A DNA stretch of 26,079 nucleotides from a virus (lineage: Duplodnaviria; Heunggongvirae; Uroviricota; Caudoviricetes), in the IMG/VR virus record IMGVR_UViG_2698536454_000020, positions 1 to 26,079 of that record, one strand, 5' to 3'. Below the pieces are notes generated by a model. The model saw only the letters and a program-made list of their open reading frames with translations. It searched no databases and was not told where the DNA came from. The stretch's first letter is position 1, and each line of letters begins with the position of its first letter. The position numbers and the translations under genes were made by a program. Of this stretch, positions 1 through 11,232 are shown piece by piece.

Positions 1-981
1 TTATAACGTCACTCCGCCTTTTAGTGGATTCAGAGCGACGGCATTTTGCAGATAGTCAGGCGCAAGGTGCGCATAGGCCATCGTCTGCTGAATGCTCGCA
101 TGTCCCAGAATCTGTTGCAGTGCGATTATATTGCCCCCATTCATCATGAAATGGCTTGCGAATGTATGCCGCAGGATGTGGGTTGCCTGATTGGGTGGTA
201 TATCAGGTTTCACTCTGCGTAAAATCCCGCAAAATTTCTCATAATCAACTTTGAATAATTTGGCGCTGGCCTCCTCTTTAACTTTTTTCTCCAGTTCCTC
301 AGAAATCGGCACGGTTCGCTTTTTACCGTTTTTGGTTTTCAGGAAGGTAACCCTGCAATTTGTAATCTGTGCTGGTTTTAGCGTGGCAACTTCCGTCCAT
401 CTTCCTCCAGTGCTCAGACATAAAAGCGCGACAAGTAAGTCATCACCAGCCAAAACATTTAACAGTTTTTCGATTTCTGCTTTTTCCAGGAACGTCATTT
501 CAGGGTTGGCTTCCGCCAGTGGCGGCAGTCCGTGAATTGGGTGTTGCCCGGAAAATTCATCCAATTGAATTAATTTTGTGAACATGCCGGATAATCGGTA
601 CATGTCACGGTTTATCGTTGCGGCACTGATACCATCACGTAGTCGCATGGAACGATAATCCATCAAAGCCCTTTTGCTCATCCTGCTCACTGGTATATCA
701 CCTATGCCGCTGATGGTTTTGAGTAGATGATTAAACTCTTTTGTTCCATGCTCGTGGTTTTGCCCGTGATATTTCCACCAGATGTCCAGCAACTCACTCA
801 AAGTCCGGCGGTCTGCTCGCTGGCCTCCCCATTCTTTCTGACTGGCATTGGCGATTGTGTATCGCTCAAATGCTAGTGCTTCAGCTTTTCTTTCGAATTT
901 CCTGCGGATGCGTTTTCCGTCGCGGCCGCGAGGTCTAATGTCCACTTCATAGCGACCATCATCGAGCTTCTTAATTGCCAT
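1..981 (-). CDS. int: Phage integrase, tyrosine recombinase (P2 Int-like). ORF is open to 1011, but the ATG at 981 (MAIKKLDDG...) has a GGAGG Shine-Dalgarno 8 nt upstream and matches the remembered P2 Int N-terminus.
   Basis: ORF track 1..1011 (-); C-terminal region carries the tyrosine-recombinase signature (HxLRHTFAS ... AYAHL); position at the prophage edge, divergent from the repressor as in P2. Confidence 0.88.
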   Translation of the reverse strand: MAIKKLDDGRYEVDIRPRGRDGKRIRRKFERKAEALAFERYTIANASQKEWGGQRADRRTLSELLDIWWKYHGQNHEHGTKEFNHLLKTISGIGDIPVSRMSKRALMDYRSMRLRDGISAATINRDMYRLSGMFTKLIQLDEFSGQHPIHGLPPLAEANPEMTFLEKAEIEKLLNVLAGDDLLVALLCLSTGGRWTEVATLKPAQITNCRVTFLKTKNGKKRTVPISEELEKKVKEEASAKLFKVDYEKFCGILRRVKPDIPPNQATHILRHTFASHFMMNGGNIIALQQILGHASIQQTMAYAHLAPDYLQNAVALNPLKGGVTL

Positions 982-1050
982 AAGAAAGCCCTCCGGCGCT
1001 GTATTCACCATCTTGGTAGCAAATGGTGAAAATGTAATCTTTATATAGAG

Positions 1051-3237: not shown

Positions 3238-3509
3238 GTATTCGTATTGAAATTGGCGAACGTTATGTCGTTACCAGTGACAGCTTTCAGTTTATTCTCC
3301 ACGAGAAAAAGAGAGCGGAAAGCGGTAAAAACGCCGGTCAGGAATGGCTGGCGGTGGTTGGTTATTACCCGAAATTAAGCCAGCTCGTTTCCGGCCTGAT
3401 GCATCACGATATTCTGACCGGAAGCGCAAAGTCTTTTGCTGATTTAAACGGGCAGGTTGAGCAACTCAGCAAGCGTTGTTCAGAGGCTTTTGGCTCATAT
3501 GGCCGTTAA
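3234..3509 (+). CDS. Hypothetical early protein (P2 orf83 position), 91 aa
   Basis: ORF track; ATGA overlap with the upstream gene; overlaps the A start by 11 nt. Confidence 0.5.
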   Translation: MSIRIEIGERYVVTSDSFQFILHEKKRAESGKNAGQEWLAVVGYYPKLSQLVSGLMHHDILTGSAKSFADLNGQVEQLSKRCSEAFGSYGR

Positions 3510-5778
3510 AGCCTCCGGGCGTTTTGTCCCTCCGTCAGCATTTGCCGCAGGCACCGGTAAGACGTTTACCGGTGCTTATGCATGGAACGCGCCACGCGAG
3601 GCCGTCGGGCGCGAAAGACCCCTTACACGTGACGAGATGCGTCAGGTGCAAGGTGTTTTATCCACGATTAACCGCCTGCCTTACTTTTTGCGTTCGCTGT
3701 TTACTTCACGCTATGACTACATCCGGCGCAATAAAAGCCCGGTGCACGGGTTTTATTTCCTCACATCCACTTTTCAGCGTCGTTTATGGCCGCGCATTGA
3801 GCGCGTGAATCAGCGCCATGAAATGAACACCGACGCGTCGTTACTGTTTCTGGCAGAGCGTGACCACTATGCGCGCCTGCCGGGAATGAATGACAAGGAG
3901 CTGAAAAAATTTGCCGCCCGTATCTCATCGCAGCTTTTCATGATGTATGAGGAACTCTGCGATGCCTGGGTGGATGCCCATGGCGAAAAAGAATCGCTGT
4001 TTACGGATGAGGCGCAGGCTCACCTGTATGGTCATGTTGCTGGCGCTGCACGTGCTTTCAATATTTCCCCGCTCTACTGGAAAAAATACCGTAAAGGACA
4101 GATGACCACGAGGCAGGCATATTCTGCCATTGCCCGCCTGTTTAACGATGAGTGGTGGACTCATCAGCTTAAAGGCCAGCGTATGCGCTGGCATGAGGCG
4201 TTACTGATTGCTGTCGGGGAGGTCAATAAAGACCGTTCTCCTTATGCCAGTAAACATGCCATTCGTGATGTGCGTGCACGCCGCCAGGCAAATCTGGAAT
4301 TTCTTAAATCGTGTGACCTTGAAAACAGGGAAACCGGCGAGCGCATCGACCTTATCAGTAAGGTGATGGGCAGTATTTCTAATCCTGAAATTCGCCGGAT
4401 GGAGCTGATGAACACCATCGCCGGAATTGAGCGTTACGCCGCCGCAGAGGGTGATGTGGGGATGTTTATCACGCTGACCGCGCCGTCAAAGTATCACCCG
4501 ACACGTCAGGTCGGAAAAGGCGAAAGTAAAACCGTCCAGCTAAATCACGGCTGGAACGATGAGGCATTTAATCCAAAGGATGCGCAGCGTTATCTCTGCC
4601 ATATCTGGAGCCTGATGCGCACGGCATTCAAGGATAATGATTTACAGGTCTACGGTTTGCGTGTCGTCGAGCCACACCACGACGGAACGCCGCACTGGCA
4701 TATGATGCTTTTTTGTCATCCACGCCAGCGTAACCAGATTATTGAAATCATGCGTCGCTATGCGCTCAAAGAGGATGGCGACGAAAGAGGAGCCGCGCGA
4801 AACCGTTTTCAGGCAAAACACCTTAACCGGGGCGGTGCTGCGGGATATATCGCGAAATACATCTCAAAAAACATCGACGGCTATGCACTGGATGGTCAGC
4901 TCGATAATGATACCGGTAGGCCGCTGAAAGACACAGCTGCGGCTGTTACCGCATGGGCGTCAACGTGGCGCATTCCGCAATTTAAAACGGTTGGTCTGCC
5001 GACAATGGGGGCTTACCGTGAACTACGCAAATTGCCTCGCGGCGTCAGCATTGCTGATGAGTTTGACGAGCGCGTCGAGGCTGCACGCGCCGCTGCAGAC
5101 AGTGGTGATTTTGCGTTGTATATCAGCGCGCAGGGCGGGGCAAATGTCCCGCGCGATTGTCAGACTGTCAGGGTCGCCCGTAGCCCGTCGGATGACGTTA
5201 ACGAGTACGAGGAAGAAGTCGAGAGAGTGGTCGGCATTTACGCGCCGCATCTCGGCGCGCGTCATATTCATATCACCAGAACGACGGACTGGCGCATTGT
5301 TCCGAAAGTGCCGGTCGTTGAGCCTTTGACTTTAAAAAGCGGCATCGCCGCGCCTCGGAGTCCTGTCAATAACTGTGGAAAGCTCACCGGTGGTGATACT
5401 TCGTTACCGGCTCCCACACCTTCTGAGCACGCCGCAGCAGTGCTTAATCTGGTTGATGACGGTGTTATTGAATGGAATGACCAGGAGGTCGTGAGGGCGC
5501 TCAGGGGCGCATTAAAACAAGGTCTGAGAAGACCAAACCGTCAGCAAAGAAACGGAAGCCCGTTAAAACAGCATGAAATGGCACCATCGGCCAGACTGAC
5601 CCGGTCAGAACGAATGCAAATTACCCGTATCCGCGTTGACCTTGCTCAGAACGGTATCAGGCCGCAGCGATGGGAGCTTGAGGCGCTGGCGCGTGGAGCA
5701 ATTGTAAATTACGACGGGAAAAAATTCACGTATCCAGTCGCTGATGAGTGGCGGGGATTCTCAGCAGTAATGGAGTGA
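3499..5778 (+). CDS. A: Rolling-circle replication initiator endonuclease (P2 gpA-like), about 759 aa from the ATG at 3499
   Basis: ORF track 3457..5778; start moved to 3499 (MAVKASGRFVPP...) to match the remembered gpA N-terminus; HUH-type motif PHWHMMLF and tyrosine motif GYIAKYISKN present. Confidence 0.88.
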   Translation: MAVKASGRFVPPSAFAAGTGKTFTGAYAWNAPREAVGRERPLTRDEMRQVQGVLSTINRLPYFLRSLFTSRYDYIRRNKSPVHGFYFLTSTFQRRLWPRIERVNQRHEMNTDASLLFLAERDHYARLPGMNDKELKKFAARISSQLFMMYEELCDAWVDAHGEKESLFTDEAQAHLYGHVAGAARAFNISPLYWKKYRKGQMTTRQAYSAIARLFNDEWWTHQLKGQRMRWHEALLIAVGEVNKDRSPYASKHAIRDVRARRQANLEFLKSCDLENRETGERIDLISKVMGSISNPEIRRMELMNTIAGIERYAAAEGDVGMFITLTAPSKYHPTRQVGKGESKTVQLNHGWNDEAFNPKDAQRYLCHIWSLMRTAFKDNDLQVYGLRVVEPHHDGTPHWHMMLFCHPRQRNQIIEIMRRYALKEDGDERGAARNRFQAKHLNRGGAAGYIAKYISKNIDGYALDGQLDNDTGRPLKDTAAAVTAWASTWRIPQFKTVGLPTMGAYRELRKLPRGVSIADEFDERVEAARAAADSGDFALYISAQGGANVPRDCQTVRVARSPSDDVNEYEEEVERVVGIYAPHLGARHIHITRTTDWRIVPKVPVVEPLTLKSGIAAPRSPVNNCGKLTGGDTSLPAPTPSEHAAAVLNLVDDGVIEWNDQEVVRALRGALKQGLRRPNRQQRNGSPLKQHEMAPSARLTRSERMQITRIRVDLAQNGIRPQRWELEALARGAIVNYDGKKFTYPVADEWRGFSAVME

Positions 5779-6043
5779 ACGTCGCCAGTTGCGAAAATTA
5801 TTTACAGGGGGCAGCGTTAAGCATCTAAAGATCTTGTTCTATGATTAGAATGTTTCCTCGTTGCACTCTCGTATAGTTATTTAATGGGAAGATGTACTCT
5901 ATATGTTGTGTTTTGGTGATAAATGAAGCCAAAGGAAGGAGATTTTGCTTGATTGATGGGCGCTCTTTGCTATACACCTTGTATTGAGAAGGAGAAGTAA
6001 TCAAGGATTAAGCTGGCTTTTGTCAAAAATCTGAAAAGCTTTT

Positions 6044-6073
6044 TTGACTGAATACGATAGCGAGTTGTACTAT
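6044..6073 (+). promoter_or_regulatory. Candidate sigma70 promoter for the island's first operon
   Basis: TTGACT (6044..6049), 18-bp spacer, TACTAT (6068..6073), about 35 bp upstream of the ATG at 6108. Confidence 0.35.
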
Positions 6074-6107
6074 TTGCGCCCTCAAAAGTAACCGGCGGCT
6101 GGGTAAA

Positions 6108-6482
6108 ATGGGGAAGCAAGGCAAAGGCAAAGGCAACAAAAATCAGGTTAAGGTTACGTGGGCTCAGGCGTGGCGGGATGTAATGATAAGAGCCATGTCT
6201 AATGGTCAGTTGATACCTATTACCATCAGTATTATTTTAATGATTGCTGCATGGAGGTTACCAAAAACTGACTTGTCCAATTTAGCCTTCTCTATTGTTG
6301 ATGGCTTTAAGGAGCATTCCTTGGTTGGTTGGGCTATCTCGGTAATAGTGGGTTTGGCTTGGTCTGCACATGCGCGAATCATGAGGCGCTGTTTTAGTTC
6401 CGAGGCACAGAGAATCGGTAACGAGAAAACAAAGTATCAACAAAGACAGACCACTCAAGCCTTGGGTACAAGTGATAAATAG
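6108..6482 (+). CDS. Small membrane protein, 124 aa, lysine-rich N-terminus and two predicted TM helices
   Basis: ORF track; hydrophobic stretches LIPITISIILMIAAW and LVGWAISVIVGLAWSA; low-GC island in the P2 tin/old hotspot slot. Confidence 0.55.
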   Translation: MGKQGKGKGNKNQVKVTWAQAWRDVMIRAMSNGQLIPITISIILMIAAWRLPKTDLSNLAFSIVDGFKEHSLVGWAISVIVGLAWSAHARIMRRCFSSEAQRIGNEKTKYQQRQTTQALGTSDK

Positions 6483-6502
6483 TTGTTTATTTAGGAGTTA
6501 TT

Positions 6503-7060
6503 ATGCTGACAGTGCTGTTTTATGTGCTGTTGGGTTTAGGCGCAGCACACTTCATTTACGAGCGAATCATTTTGCCGTCCATCCGACTTCATTATAGAAA
6601 CCAATTGTTTGCGCTTCGTGATGTCGCTAGGAGGAAAATCATTGATGGAGGTTCCGATACTTCCATGCAAGCGGCAACACTTGTGCATGACTCATTGAAT
6701 AACGCTATCAATAGATTGCATTTACTCACGTTGCCAAACAAATTTCGTGCTCAAAAGCGTATGGCAGAAAACCATGCAATAAGGCAGAAAATTCGGCGTG
6801 AGATAGATGTTTTCAAACGCTGTGATGATAGAGAAGTTGTTGATGTACTGTTTAAATCCGGTCGGATACTTGAAAATGTACTGTTATTCAATAGCTTAAT
6901 GTTATTGCTTTACATGTTTCCATTTGTCCTTGCTGTATGGTTCTGTGTTAGGGTCATAAAGACAGCAAGTAGTTTAGTACAGTGGGTCAAAGGAAGAGAT
7001 TTAGAGGAAGCTATAATGCTGCTTCCTGATACTCAGGTTGAAAAGGTTGTATACGCATAA
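6503..7060 (+). CDS. Membrane protein, 185 aa, N-terminal TM helix, central soluble region, C-terminal TM helix
   Basis: ORF track; AGGAG Shine-Dalgarno at 6493..6497; hydrophobic segments at residues about 2..18 and 128..150; 20 bp downstream of the preceding ORF. Confidence 0.6.
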   Translation: MLTVLFYVLLGLGAAHFIYERIILPSIRLHYRNQLFALRDVARRKIIDGGSDTSMQAATLVHDSLNNAINRLHLLTLPNKFRAQKRMAENHAIRQKIRREIDVFKRCDDREVVDVLFKSGRILENVLLFNSLMLLLYMFPFVLAVWFCVRVIKTASSLVQWVKGRDLEEAIMLLPDTQVEKVVYA

Positions 7061-7062
7061 AA

Positions 7063-7089
7063 ATCACCCCTTAGGGGGTGATTTTTTTA
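7063..7089 (+). terminator. Rho-independent terminator after the membrane-protein operon
   Basis: ATCACCCC-TTAG-GGGGTGAT perfect 8-bp stem followed by TTTTTTT, immediately after the stop at 7058..7060. Confidence 0.65.
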
Positions 7090-7255
7090 CATGACTTTTG
7101 ATTAGCTGACATTGTAAATCCGCATGTATCAGATGCATTGTTTTGCATGTGGAAATGGGTGTTTTCACTGCCAGCTATCGCTACATGTAGCAAAAACACG
7201 GGCTTAATAAGAAATCATTCTGCCATAAGGCATAACTTCCCCGCGTGCTCAGGTA

Positions 7256-7285
7256 TTGACGTCATAGATATGGATCTTTTTTAAT
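7256..7285 (+). promoter_or_regulatory. Candidate promoter for the TIR-like gene
   Basis: TTGACG (7256..7261), 17-18 bp spacer, TTTAAT-like -10; AAGG Shine-Dalgarno before the ATG at 7300. Confidence 0.3.
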
Positions 7286-7299
7286 CAAGGTATGGTATT

Positions 7300-8247
7300 A
7301 TGAAGATATTTATTAGTTGGTCAGGTCAGGACAGCCTGGAGATAGCAAAAGTATTACGGGATTGGATACCGAATGTTATTCAAGTAGCTGAGCCGTACGT
7401 ATCAGCGGAAGATATTGATAAAGGCACTCGCTGGGCGACTGATATATCAAAGGAACTTGATGACTCTTCTTATGGGATTATTTGCCTTACAAAAAATAAT
7501 ATTAATGCACCGTGGATAAATTTTGAGGCGGGTGCTTTAGGTAAAAAGGTTGATAAGAGCCGGGTTAGTCCTTTCTTGTTTAAAATTAAACCATCTGAGA
7601 TAACAGGCCCAATATTACAATTCCAGTATACTCGTTCGGATGATAAGAACGATATTTTGAAGTTGATGTTGTCAATAAATAATCAAGCAGGATTTTTGAC
7701 TGAAGAACGCTTAACTAAAGCTTTCGAGCAATGGTGGCCAAGTTTAGAGCGTGAGTTAGATAACATTCAAGATATTAACCCTGTAGATAAAGATTCCACT
7801 AAAAAAACAAAAGGTGATTCGACTTCTGAGATACAAAATCTTTCCAAAATTGTTGAAAGTTTGCTGGATATTAGCCGAACAAATCACCAATTATTGCGTG
7901 ATCCAGCATCATTATTGCCAGAAGAATATGTTAGCAAAATAATAAACAGGGAAGGGCGTAAAGAAACTGTTTTAAAAATTGTAGCTTCTGATTTATTATC
8001 CATGCATCATTCACTAATTCGTGTAAAAAGAAGATTTATTCGCCGTGGTATTGATGAAACATCTAGGAGCGAGTTAATTGAATCATTAAATAAAATGATA
8101 ATGGATTGTTCTAGAGTAATCGCTCACTTAGATAATTATTGTGGGGCTTCATCAAACAATATGTTCAATAGTGCGCTTAGATTGCGGACCAGAAATTTAA
8201 TTGACATGATGGATGAGGAGGATGCAGAACGGGATGAAATGGAATAA
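7300..8247 (+). CDS. TIR-like domain protein (N-terminal ~135 aa) fused to an unrecognised ~175-aa helical C-terminal domain; candidate anti-phage NADase or signal-generating protein
   Basis: N-terminus MKIFISWSGQDS and the block ICLTKNNINAPWINFEAG (W72, E76; GAG at 7525..7527) fit the bacterial TIR-like pattern (F-I-S-x-S/H start, [SA]-x-W-[CI]-x-x-E). Own promoter and terminator-bounded unit; low GC. Confidence 0.6.
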   Translation: MKIFISWSGQDSLEIAKVLRDWIPNVIQVAEPYVSAEDIDKGTRWATDISKELDDSSYGIICLTKNNINAPWINFEAGALGKKVDKSRVSPFLFKIKPSEITGPILQFQYTRSDDKNDILKLMLSINNQAGFLTEERLTKAFEQWWPSLERELDNIQDINPVDKDSTKKTKGDSTSEIQNLSKIVESLLDISRTNHQLLRDPASLLPEEYVSKIINREGRKETVLKIVASDLLSMHHSLIRVKRRFIRRGIDETSRSELIESLNKMIMDCSRVIAHLDNYCGASSNNMFNSALRLRTRNLIDMMDEEDAERDEME

Positions 8248-8297
8248 TCGATTTTGACTAATCATAAATAATTTTGCATATATAAACTTATAATGCC

Positions 8298-8320
8298 GCA
8301 GCCGCTATTTTTCAGCGGCT
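8298..8320. other. Hairpin (CAGCCGCT / AGCGGCTG stem) flanked by direct repeats CTTATAATG
   Basis: Read from sequence about 50 bp after the TIR-like gene stop; no clean T-run after the stem, so terminator function is uncertain. Confidence 0.3.
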
Positions 8321-8791
8321 GTATATCGCTTATAATGGGTATGTTATTTTTATTTTGATAAAATCATTAAAATTGTCGATGTTATATGAATGCACATGTA
8401 TTATTAATGTTAGAAGATTATGCCTGCTTACGGCTATTGTGCTGAATTCAACTATGAACGCATCAGTATTAAAATCGTTCCATGAAATGTTCTTCGTCTA
8501 CAGCAGATGATGGGCAACGAAAAAATGACGCTGAGTGAGTTGGTCGGGGAGAATTGTTAGAGGTATTTATGGAGTGGTTTAATAATATCGGTCAATCCTG
8601 AGTTGCAGCATCACATAGACGATAGGGAATCTCTCCAGTCGTTCTGGAATGGCAGCGTTGAACAACAAGCACAGCGAGGCGTTAGATGCCCATCAGATTG
8701 ACACAGAGGGTTTATGAATCGCTGGGATTTACTTAGTTTGAAAAATAATATATTTATATGTTTTTGTATTGTGTTTGTTAAGGAGTTTGGA

Positions 8792-8997
8792 TTGAAAAGA
8801 AAACTGATTTGTGTTATGGCTTTTTGGGGGCGTTGCTGGCTGGTTGTAATGAGAGTAATAAAAAAGAAGTTGAGGGTTGTATTGAAAGAGGTGTCCAATA
8901 TTTTATAGAGATTGGTTCTTACCCTAAATTAAGTGATGGGCGTGATGCTGTGAAAGTTGCTACTGAACGTTGTAATAGAACAATAACGGCTTTCTGA
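8792..8997 (+). pseudogene. Small lipoprotein gene (~70 aa) interrupted by a -1 frameshift in a T5G5 homopolymer run (8821..8830)
   Basis: AGGAG at 8781..8785 then TTG 8792; frame 2 gives MKRKLICVMAF..., frame 1 continues ...LGALLAGCNESNKK... to the stop at 8995..8997. One extra T would give a textbook lipoprotein signal peptide with LAGC lipobox. Confidence 0.4.
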
Positions 8998-8999
8998 TA

Positions 9000-9917
9000 A
9001 TGGATTATACGAGCTATATAATAGGGCAGCTTCAGGTTGAGGATATTATTGATGCAATTAAAGGCGTTAATAATACTAATGTCATAAAAGATTATGTGCT
9101 GCCTGTAGTATTACCAATTATATCTTCTGTGCTGAGTTACTTTATTGCAACTAGGTTGTTTTATCGGCAGGAGTACCTTAAAGCACAAAGAAGAAAGGTA
9201 AGCGTTGTAAATAAATGTATTTATGACTACTTTTCTGCAATGACAACGTTGTTGCAAATTAAAGGGAATTATTATGGTGGGGTAAGTATAAGTGAAAATC
9301 CTATCGAGAGGGCTTTAGCTTTTCCTGTTGTGGTTTTTTCTGGTGCTCCTCTATCATCAGATTTAAGTGAGTTGGCCTGTATATTGAGTCAAAAGGGAGT
9401 AGGGAATAATAGAGAGACAGCAAAGACTACTAACTGGGGGGATGCTTTTGCTGTTAGTGATATAGCAAGAAGGTTTAACAGCCTATTGGCTGCATTAAAT
9501 GTTAGGAATGATTTTGATGACACCTATAGAGGAATGATTATTGAATCAACAGGTTCACCTTTGCCTACGATGCGTTTTAAAAATGATGATATTGTTAATG
9601 CTATAGGTAGTAATAAGGCAGCTTATTACATTGATATTACTGAGCAAATAATGATTATGATAGATGTTTTGTTGCTTGATATTAATCTGTTGCTCAAAGA
9701 GTTGCCATTGTATGCTGAATCGCTGTTTGACAAAAGAGTAATGCAAGAAGATTCAGGGATTCTTAAATTCAATGATTTGCACGAACGTTTTCCTCTACTT
9801 ATGAAACCTGTAACGCCACCTTCGATTAAACTCATGTCTGATTATTTGGGGTACAGTGAAGATGAGATCTTACGACGCTATCCATACCCGTTCTTTAATA
9901 TGCATGATTGTGAATGA
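9000..9917 (+). CDS. Hypothetical membrane-anchored protein, 305 aa, one N-proximal TM helix, no recognisable domain
   Basis: ORF track; ATG overlaps the lipoprotein gene stop region (TGATAATG), implying co-transcription; hydrophobic segment VLPVVLPIISSVLSYFIAT; AT-rich codon usage. Confidence 0.6.
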   Translation: MDYTSYIIGQLQVEDIIDAIKGVNNTNVIKDYVLPVVLPIISSVLSYFIATRLFYRQEYLKAQRRKVSVVNKCIYDYFSAMTTLLQIKGNYYGGVSISENPIERALAFPVVVFSGAPLSSDLSELACILSQKGVGNNRETAKTTNWGDAFAVSDIARRFNSLLAALNVRNDFDDTYRGMIIESTGSPLPTMRFKNDDIVNAIGSNKAAYYIDITEQIMIMIDVLLLDINLLLKELPLYAESLFDKRVMQEDSGILKFNDLHERFPLLMKPVTPPSIKLMSDYLGYSEDEILRRYPYPFFNMHDCE

Positions 9918-10021
9918 ATGTGCATATGTCAGAAGCCGTTTTTATTGTCAGTTATCGTCAGTGCTGGCGCGCTCTTGGAGTGTTCATGCAACTGCATTAA
10001 AACCGCCCCACGAAGCGGGCG

Positions 10022-10040
10022 GGCGAGGCGGGGAAAGCAC
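10022..10040. other. Candidate cos site (P2-type 19-nt cohesive end GGCGAGGCGGGGAAAGCAC)
   Basis: Exact 19-mer present in a GC-rich gap between the island and portal gene Q, where cos lies in a P2 prophage; the cos sequence is recalled from memory, not searched. Confidence 0.5.
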
Positions 10041-10170
10041 TGCGCGCTGGCGGTGGTGATGATTGTCTGAGCGCGTCGTGATGGCGTTTAGATTGTGCGC
10101 CGGGGCGTTGGTGTGTCTGCGGGGTGTTTTGTACAGTGGCGAGCGTGTGAGGGCGTGATGACGGGGGTGT

Positions 10171-10192
10171 AAAAAAGCCGCCCGCAGGCGGC
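10171..10192 (-). terminator. Rho-independent terminator downstream of Q on the minus strand
   Basis: Plus strand shows AAAAAA then GCCGCC-CGCA-GGCGGC; on the minus strand this is a GC hairpin followed by TTTTTT, immediately after the Q stop at 10198..10200. Confidence 0.55.
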
Positions 10193-10197
10193 GATGT

Positions 10198-11232
10198 TCA
10201 GCCGTTGTCAGTGTCCAGTGAGTAGTTTTTAAAGCGGATGACCTCCTGACCGAGCCAGCCGTTTATTTCCCGAATCCTGTCCTGTAACGGGATAAGTTCA
10301 TTGCGGACAAAGACCTTTGCCACTTTCTCAATATCGCCCAGCGACCCGACGTTTTCCGGCTTGCCACCCATCAACTGAAAGGGGATGCGGTGCGCGTCCA
10401 GCAGGTCAGCGGCGCTGGCTTTTTTGATATTAAAAAAATCGTCCTTCGTGGCCACTTCACTGAGCGGGATAATTTTAATGCCGTCGGCTTTTCCCTGTGG
10501 GGCATAGAGAAACAGGTTTTTAAAGTTATTGCGGCCTTTCGACTTCACCATGTTTTCGCGGAGCATTTCGATATCGTTGCGATCCTGCACGGCATCAGTG
10601 ACGTACATGATGTATCCGGCATGTGCGCCGTTTTCGTAATACTTGCGGCGGAACAGCGTGGCCGACTCATTCAGCCAGGCCGAGTTAAGGGCGCTGAGAT
10701 ATTCCGGCAGGCCGTACAGCTCCTGATTAATATCCGGCTCCAGCAGGTGAAACACGGAGCCGGGCGTGAAAGGTGTCGGCTCGTTGAAGGACGGCACCCA
10801 CCAGTAAACATCCTCCTCCACCCCACGGCGGGTATATTTTGCCGGTGAGGTTTCCAGTCTGATGACCTTACCGGTGGTGCTGTATCGCTTTTCCAGAAAC
10901 GCATTACCGAACACCAGAAAATCCAGCACAAAGCGGCTGAAATCCTGTTGCGAAAGCCACGGGTGCGGGATAAACGTTGAGGCCAGAATATTACGTTTGA
11001 CGTAAATCGGGGAGCTGTGATGCACGGCAGCACGAAGGCTTTTTGCCAGCCCGGTAAAGCTGACTGGTGGCTCATACCATCTGCCGTTACTGATGCACTC
11101 GACGTAATCCAGAATGTCACGGCGGTCGAGTACCGGCACCGGCTCGCCAAAGGTGAATGCCTCCATTTTCGGGGCGCTGGCGGTCATTGTTTTTGCCGCT
11201 GGTCGCGGTGTTTTCCCTTTTTTCTTGCTCAT
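10198..11232 (-). CDS. Q: Portal protein (P2 gpQ-like), 344 aa
   Basis: 344-aa ORF, same length as P2 gpQ; adjacent to and co-oriented with the large terminase, divergent from O. Confidence 0.88.
   Translation of the reverse strand: MSKKKGKTPRPAAKTMTASAPKMEAFTFGEPVPVLDRRDILDYVECISNGRWYEPPVSFTGLAKSLRAAVHHSSPIYVKRNILASTFIPHPWLSQQDFSRFVLDFLVFGNAFLEKRYSTTGKVIRLETSPAKYTRRGVEEDVYWWVPSFNEPTPFTPGSVFHLLEPDINQELYGLPEYLSALNSAWLNESATLFRRKYYENGAHAGYIMYVTDAVQDRNDIEMLRENMVKSKGRNNFKNLFLYAPQGKADGIKIIPLSEVATKDDFFNIKKASAADLLDAHRIPFQLMGGKPENVGSLGDIEKVAKVFVRNELIPLQDRIREINGWLGQEVIRFKNYSLDTDNG

Follow-up and report, generated by a model that had tools for sequence, protein, structure and literature searches.

The 2TM-1TM gene pair of the Rst_2TM_1TM_TIR locus as a probable mobile cassette separate from the adjoining TIR gene

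Genes, proteins and transcription signals at the locus

The two small membrane-protein genes considered here, open reading frames (ORFs) 1 and 2, lie in the IMG/VR virus record IMGVR_UViG_2698536454_000020, of which positions 1 to 26,079 (26,079 nucleotides, hereafter the window) were analysed. The window as a whole is a P2-like prophage, virtually identical to phage P2_AC1 in the accessory hotspot between genes A and Q (gpA-Q). The pair is located in this variable region and is followed by a gene for a TIR-domain protein. Nucleotides 5780-10021 are 99.7% identical to Escherichia phage P2_AC1 (OV192280.1) over 4242 nt. Relative to AC1, ORF2 is identical, ORF1 carries one GGCAAA (Gly-Lys) repeat fewer, which is the sole difference within the pair, and the TIR gene differs by 1 nt. 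The PADLOC 2TM-TIR model PDLC02978 matches ORF1 over residues 1-124 of 124 (E = 2.2e-58), the 1TM-TIR model PDLC02977 matches ORF2 over residues 1-184 (E = 2.7e-75), and the TIR-TM model PDLC03016 matches the TIR gene over its full length (E = 2.3e-118). With a 2TM gene, an adjacent 1TM gene, a TIR gene immediately downstream and sequence identity to the type locus, likewise located between gpA and Q of a P2-like phage, ORF1 and ORF2 are the 2TM + 1TM pair of the locus catalogued as Rst_2TM_1TM_TIR by DefenseFinder and PADLOC, and are already known. An initial annotation made from the sequence alone had described the anatomy accurately but had not recognised the locus as an already named and validated system.

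The system was described in phage P2_AC1 by Rousset et al. (2022, Cell Host Microbe, PMC9122126), and that article presents the gpA-Q hotspot as a proven reservoir of anti-phage systems. It reports that an AC1 lysogen, as well as a plasmid with the three genes, protects Escherichia coli C against lambda, LF82_P8 and P2. The construct, pFD240, is given in their Table S2 as "2TM + 1TM + TIR", and the hypothesis offered there for the AC1 locus borrows the logic of Thoeris. The searched passages of the article and its supplementary files (PMC9122126) contain no report of AC1-system mutants, whether deletions or point mutations. A literature search under the system name returned the original paper and one survey preprint, with no mechanistic follow-up; the preprint uses the name Rst_2TM_1TM_TIR and counts the system as one of two that were undetected in its authors' bacterial genome set.

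Both ORFs are coding, as is evident from protein-level conservation across phyla, with tblastn E values of 1e-12 to 1e-69 for ORF1 and 1e-9 to 1e-93 for ORF2. Transmembrane (TM) segments were called from Kyte-Doolittle hydropathy, computed both for the single proteins and for alignments of their families. In ORF1 the hydrophobic segments are residues 35-51 and 71-87; the N-terminus is rich in Lys and Gly, a conserved basic helix forms the C-terminus, and in the family alignments the termini carry net charges of +4 and +5 and the loop a charge of -2. By the positive-inside rule, ORF1 is predicted to be an N-in/C-in helical hairpin with basic cytoplasmic tails. The hydrophobic segments of ORF2 are residues 2-18 and 132-148, the latter followed by a short C-terminal tail, and the region 21-125 between them is basic (+6.8). 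An AlphaFold2 model of ORF2, with a predicted local distance difference test (pLDDT) score of 85.8, is all-helical, a 47-residue helix leading from TM1 into a helical bundle and then to TM2. This suggests a protein anchored in the membrane by two TM helices, one N-terminal and one near the C-terminus, with a basic helical bundle between them in the cytoplasm. The two TM helices of ORF1 with its lysine-rich N-terminus, and the two of ORF2 around a region of about 105 residues, had been proposed in the initial annotation, and hydropathy places them in agreement with it. Near its N-terminus, at 6114-6137, ORF1 contains the in-frame GGCAAA (Gly-Lys) repeat in 3 copies, compared with 4 in AC1; a fourth copy may also occur in two complete E. 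coli genomes that show a 6-nt-longer match.

Conserved residues were taken from an alignment of 29 ORF2 relatives (A2) and from an ORF1 alignment (A3), 10 ORF1 homologues being usable. Invariant in ORF2 are H16, Y19 and E20 at the end of TM1, P25, R28, R32, D40 and R43 along one face of the helix after TM1, the motif LNNAINRL (N66, N67, N70), and N130, Y137 and P140 in TM2. ORF1 has invariant G33 and Q34 before TM1, G74, W85 and S122, and its C-terminal helix contributes R93, E99, R102, E106 and Q111. Searches of Pfam, NCBIfam and PHROGs gave no functional family for either protein, profile searches of PDB sequences with both families gave nothing, and a Foldseek search of BFVD with the ORF2 model gave no match at E <= 0.001. 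No sensor domain of the SLOG, Macro, SAVED, STING or CARF type was found in ORF1 or ORF2. A role in lysis as holin, antiholin or spanin was considered and rejected: there is no Pfam, PHROG-function or NCBIfam match, the pair of P2-like phages is far from the lysis genes, and the lambdoid pair flanks complete lysis cassettes and lies outside them.

The two genes are separated by 20 nt, and an AGGAG sequence is positioned 8 nt 5' of ORF2. Upstream of ORF1, a sigma-70-like promoter is predicted from a consensus match at 9 of 12 positions, which is no better than chance, as 17 such sites occur in the region compared with 14 +/- 2.9 in shuffled sequences. Both hexamers are invariant in the related cassettes L019, from a P2-like prophage of E. 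coli GCA_012121255.1, and L016, from Serratia, where the overall DNA identity is 70-78% and the spacer and flanks diverge. The leader between promoter and ORF1 is conserved in the same two cassettes, is without a canonical Shine-Dalgarno sequence and may be a regulatory element. The leader is also partly kept in the lambdoid loci L013 and L027, where it reads AACCGCGGCTGGATGATA-ATG, although the proteins there are only 53-62% identical.

Direct folding revealed a hairpin directly at the end of ORF2, with a stem of 12 bp (7059-7070 with 7075-7086), a UUAG loop and a T7 run at 7082-7088. The stem contains a core of 8 bp, ATCACCCC/GGGGTGAT, and folds with a free energy of -17.8 kcal/mol (z = -5.6); none of 200 shuffled sequences folded equally well. 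A simple terminator scan did not list this hairpin, because the stem extension uses up the T-run. An A-run upstream of the hairpin potentially makes the terminator bidirectional. An own terminator directly after ORF2 was present in all eight proteobacterial versions of the pair that were examined, i.e. the window and seven other distinct loci: a GC hairpin with a T-run occurs no more than 45 nt past the ORF2 stop in L016, L019, L018, L013, L010/11, L002 and L004, and the hairpin sequences are mutually unrelated. The promoter-like element, the two closely spaced ORFs of 124 and 185 residues and the 8-bp GC hairpin with its T7 run, all named in the initial annotation, are thus present at the locus, the last as the core of a longer stem.

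A moron is an independently transcribed insertion in a prophage. The pair cassette extends from just 5' of the -35 hexamer to the end of the T-run, its cargo is flanked by a predicted promoter and terminator of its own, and its presence or absence between close phage genomes is delimited by sharp breakpoints (L026 and L019, see below). Judged from its sequence, the cassette has the anatomy of a moron, that is, of a separate unit.

Separate occurrence of the pair and the TIR gene

Close relatives of the window were compared by blastn. In the pair-only prophage L019, the sequence aligning to window positions 6018-7088 (78% identity) stands next to that aligning from 9980 onwards, which is portal-side backbone, and nothing matches 7089-9979. 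The TIR-only P2 prophage L026 has a backbone that is 97% identical up to 5777, matches 7185-8486 at 80% and is 95.6% identical from 9986 on; it is without 6018-7088 despite the near-identical backbone on both sides. Backbone homology starts again at about 9980-9986. These sharp breakpoints suggest that the hotspot content is made up of three independent stacked cassettes, namely the pair, a single-gene TIR cassette and a cassette of a lipoprotein gene plus a further ORF (ORF4). An Rfam search across 5700-10300 gave no match.

A word-based search recovered 49 ORF2 relatives, chiefly from Enterobacterales, and a profile search of 1.84 billion cluster representatives yielded 1036 ORF2-family clusters at E <= 1e-3; the best 150 of these 1036 matches are all single-domain proteins of 162-194 residues. 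Genomic context was surveyed at 25 loci that encode an ORF2 homologue and do not belong to the AC1 lineage, the sample from distant phyla consisting of 7 loci. Wherever the contig allows, an ORF1 homologue is found directly 5' of ORF2, sometimes overlapping it by a few bases. At 23 of the 25 loci the available sequence continues for 1.7 kb or more past the pair, and no TIR or ORF4 homologue was present at any of these 23. The pair is the sole or the portal-proximal gpA-Q cargo in five P2-like lineages (L016/17 from Serratia, L019 from E. coli, L030, L032 and L034/35), in which ORF2 is 66-85% identical and the portal gene starts about 350 bp past ORF2. Among lambdoid or HK97-like prophages, it lies between the antiterminator Q and the holin in Klebsiella (L010-12), and between lysis genes and HNH/TerS in L013-15 and in L027 from E. 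coli RM7190; in L018 it is 5' of a lambda-type TerL, and in L002 it precedes a methylase and a holin. On chromosomes of Bacteroidota and Verrucomicrobiota its neighbours are unrelated (for example PBP1, CinA, a hybrid kinase, NMO, helicases and a transposase).

Among 5426 complete E. coli genomes, 14 contain the pair together with the TIR gene. All 14 are at least 99.3% identical and therefore count as one evolutionary event, and this gives good support to the view that the pair-TIR linkage would be a recent and single juxtaposition. Six further genomes of the same set have a divergent pair and no match to the TIR cassette; in L027, the one of the six that was examined in detail, no TIR gene is nearby. 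Co-occurrence of the three genes was accordingly confined to the AC1 lineage and was not seen across independent lineages. The PADLOC models themselves follow the separate genes: the 2TM and 1TM models match TIR-less pairs of Flavobacteriaceae (E = 7e-37 and 5e-45, respectively), the 1TM model matches a TIR-less ORF2 homologue of Verrucomicrobiota (E = 2e-43), and the TIR model matches lone TIR genes at about 1e-111 to 1e-117. The proposal that the pair forms a compact unit transcribed apart from the TIR gene agrees with the breakpoints at 6018 and 7088, with the terminator found in 8 of 8 versions and with the 23 of 23 loci that are without TIR.

The TIR gene begins 239 bp past ORF2, with the strong terminator in between. 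Homologues that are 74-78% identical form the sole gpA-Q cargo of prophages in Klebsiella (L020-22) and E. coli (L026), and a 61% identical homologue is a lone chromosomal gene in Serratia; the pair is missing from all seven TIR loci (L020-22, L026 and L023-25). The TIR-only cassettes retain 115 bp 5' of the TIR start, including a TTGAC/TG element. In the protein, the motif W72-x-N-F-E76 is intact, and E76, within PWINFEAG, is invariant in 30 homologues, as would be expected of a Thoeris-like TIR protein with this residue as the predicted catalytic glutamate. The AlphaFold2 model is of moderate quality (pLDDT 70.7). Its fold matches the TIR domains of BtTir, PdTIR and AbTir in Foldseek, which confirms the TIR fold and leaves the C-terminal helices unexplained. 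The protein has a conserved helical C-terminal region of its own, with invariant E186, R193, N195, R200, P202 and Y210. The TIR gene probably constitutes a complete TIR system by itself. A further hairpin, CAGCCGC-N9-GCGGCTG, was observed at about 8299-8321, some 50 nt past the TIR stop; it is kept in the TIR-only loci L026 and L020 and has no T-run.

The features of the window are collected in Table 1. Beyond portal gene Q follow the terminase and then the capsid and tail genes. The cassette at the portal side of the hotspot contains ORF4 (9000-9917, plus strand, 305 residues), which has an N-terminal TM helix and a match to phrog_21267 and gave no Pfam or PADLOC match. In E. coli ETEC1717 (L028), the P2 hotspot has no cargo other than a homologous cassette made up of a small ORF and an ORF4 homologue of 53% identity. 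The cassette of the window falls outside the fragment cloned by Rousset et al. (5843-8633) and is a candidate defence unit. Directly 5' of ORF4, a small lipoprotein-like gene (8714-8997, lipobox LLAGC) is frameshifted in both the window and AC1. A run of G residues at about 8826-8830 is G5 in these two records and G6 in E. coli PBS4, where the ORF of 94 residues is intact; the tract may be prone to slippage, or both records may share one sequencing or assembly artefact. With about 70% identity, the stretch 8488-8700 has matches in some 300 complete E. coli genomes, where it falls within genes annotated as hypothetical; these genomes are far more numerous than the carriers of any of the three cassettes.

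Table 1. Coordinates of features in the window
Feature	Coordinates	Strand	Basis
Integrase	1-1011	-	P2-like prophage landmark
P2 replication gene A, left border of hotspot	3457-5778	+	Pfam Phage_GPA, E = 1.5e-124
Stretch equivalent to pFD240 insert	5843-8633	+	Both Table S2 cloning primers map with 0 mismatches
Mobile 2TM-1TM pair cassette, promoter to terminator	6018-7088	+	blastn homology with pair-only L019
Sigma-70-like promoter TTGACT-18-TACTAT (predicted)	6044-6073	+	Consensus scan and hexamer conservation
5' leader (..AACCGGCGGCTGGGTAAA-ATG)	6074-6107	+	Conserved in L019 and L016
ORF1, '2TM' protein, 124 residues	6108-6482	+	PADLOC PDLC02978, phrog_33772
ORF2, '1TM' protein, 185 residues	6503-7060	+	PADLOC PDLC02977
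Intrinsic terminator (predicted), hairpin overlapping ORF2 stop codon, then T7 run	7059-7088	+	Folding
Separately mobile TIR cassette	7185-8486	+	blastn match to TIR-only L026
TIR gene, 315 residues, third gene of published system	7300-8247	+	Pfam TIR_2, E = 4.7e-10; PADLOC PDLC03016
Third, unrelated cassette, frameshifted small lipoprotein gene and ORF4	8487-9985	+	Homologous cassette in ETEC1717 (L028)
P2 portal gene Q, right border of hotspot	10198-11232	-	Pfam Phage_portal

Function of the pair and alternative explanations

From the comparative data, the pair appears to be an autonomous, horizontally mobile, moron-type cassette of two translationally coupled genes with no obligate TIR partner. 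Because the genes are tightly coupled and strictly co-inherited across phyla, ORF1 and ORF2 would be expected to form one heteromeric inner-membrane complex. Polar residues in or beside the membrane, H16, Y19, E20, N130 and Y137 of ORF2 and G33, Q34 and W85 of ORF1, could line a gated conduit or form an interaction surface. The best overall explanation, which is favoured here with a fair amount of doubt, is that the autonomous pair acts alone on incoming phages at the inner membrane. The ORF1-ORF2 complex would be expressed from the prophage. In the most likely version, the cytoplasmic bundle of ORF2 would sense infection and the complex would then depolarise or permeabilise the membrane, resulting in abortive infection; alternatively, the complex would block genome entry, i.e. 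cause superinfection exclusion. The protection measured with the cloned pair + TIR fragment would then stem from the pair, in part or entirely. A broader proposal is put forward more tentatively, as one whose chances fall slightly short of even: the pair alone may be a widespread stand-alone two-gene anti-phage or exclusion membrane system with about 1000 clusters in Proteobacteria, Bacteroidota and Verrucomicrobiota, a fold outside known classes and no recognised domain, the three-gene system being a chance juxtaposition with a single-gene TIR system, and detection rules that require TIR would hide nearly all of its occurrences.

Several points weigh against an autonomous anti-phage pair. The phenotype data all come from the combined pair + TIR fragment, and the adjacency in AC1 could be a recently acquired functional partnership. 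The anti-phage role of the pair by itself is deduced from its location in the hotspot and among prophage accessory genes. Relatives in Bacteroidota are found amid housekeeping genes and the lambdoid pair flanks the lysis cassette, so that a non-defence membrane function is possible. The complex and the topology are predictions, and the context survey covers 25 loci compared with about 1000 clusters in the family. As to the defence role suggested in the initial annotation, it is plausible in view of the protection reported for the pair + TIR fragment, but has been shown for the combined fragment only (PMC9122126).

The positions just mentioned lead to the question whether the pair serves defence at all. 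It could instead be membrane accessory cargo with a part in lysis timing, envelope stress or lysogenic conversion, while the TIR protein gives all the protection of the AC1 fragment. Such a role would suit a lambdoid pair that directly adjoins the lysis cassette and distant relatives that sit amid housekeeping genes such as PBP1, CinA, a hybrid kinase and NMO, where no defence gene lies close by; the lone TIR homologues in the defence hotspot suggest that TIR suffices as a system, and the protection data come from pair + TIR together. The pair is nevertheless the sole or portal-proximal cargo of this anti-phage hotspot (PMC9122126) in five P2-like lineages. Its own predicted promoter and terminator imply expression independent of late or lysis operons, holin, spanin and antiholin families gave no match, and its patchy, rare distribution is typical of accessory or defence genes. 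On this evidence a non-defence function is considered rather unlikely, if still a sizeable concern. That the ORFs arose by chance, or that the hairpin and promoter are fortuitous, is given practically no weight: the promoter match taken alone is indeed no better than chance, yet both proteins are conserved across phyla in length, adjacency and invariant residues, which already refutes this explanation for the ORFs, and the terminator folds with z = -5.6.

The remaining alternative accepts defence and joins the three genes in one pathway. In type II Thoeris, signals made by TIR proteins activate effectors that contain TM segments. By the same logic, the TIR protein would sense infection, and an NAD-derived nucleotide would activate 2TM + 1TM to bring about membrane-mediated cell death. 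This is the published hypothesis, and it coincides with the suggestion in the initial annotation that the pair is the membrane effector arm of TIR-based signalling. In its favour, three adjacent genes share one strand and were validated as a single fragment (PMC9122126), and an intact TIR domain is present, its W72-x-N-F-E76 motif being invariant and its fold that of TIR proteins. Against it stands the occurrence of the genes: pair and TIR occur together only in one near-clonal lineage, the pair is without TIR at the 23 of 23 other loci, and TIR is without the pair at 7 of 7, including loci in the same P2 hotspot. The strong terminator and 239 bp that separate ORF2 from the TIR gene, as well as the 115-bp upstream region that TIR-only cassettes retain as their own, also speak against a common pathway. 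A SLOG, Macro, SAVED, STING or CARF-type domain with which to sense a signal is absent from both ORF1 and ORF2, and the TIR protein has its own conserved helical C-terminal domain, like single-gene systems. Signalling from TIR to the pair is therefore regarded as unlikely, and the comparative evidence disfavours the effector-arm suggestion.

Significance and comparison with known systems

As the type example of a defence system that has already been named and validated, the locus is not itself new; what matters is its re-reading as two units. Evidence for a three-gene system comes from a single phage lineage, every other occurrence separates the pair from TIR, and the three-gene "system" is probably two systems. 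The pair family is large and uncharacterised, and current detection rules tie it to a TIR gene that it almost never has. Should the pair prove autonomous, the detection rule in DefenseFinder and PADLOC ought to be divided, exposing many more loci, and TIR would be a candidate for a one-gene system that senses through its own C-terminal region. The roughly 1000 clusters of small membrane-protein pairs, with no known domain, would then make up a tractable candidate family for a new membrane-level anti-phage mechanism, and studies that presume TIR-to-membrane signalling at this locus would be misdirected.

The nearest known system is Rst_2TM_1TM_TIR of P2_AC1 itself, which is the same locus in the same hotspot with essentially the same sequence. 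The difference is one of reading, in that the catalogue treats it as one three-gene system, whereas the comparative data point to two independently mobile units. Type II Thoeris consists of the TIR protein ThsB and an effector with a Macro domain and TM segments. The likeness is a TIR protein encoded beside membrane proteins. Unlike in Thoeris, the membrane proteins here are without a ligand-sensing domain of the ThsA type, the TIR gene is not co-inherited with them and a terminator lies in between; membership in Thoeris was rejected because no SLOG or Macro signal-binding effector is co-inherited with TIR. Lambda RexAB, T4 Imm and Sp, HK97 gp15 and P22 SieA act as exclusion or abortive-infection factors at the membrane. 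The pair showed no similarity to any of them in sequence or fold, and its exclusion or abortive-infection activity is hypothetical. What they share with it is their form: they are small inner-membrane proteins carried as self-contained promoter-gene-terminator insertions at accessory sites of prophages, and the pair is placed in this way in both P2-like and lambdoid phages.

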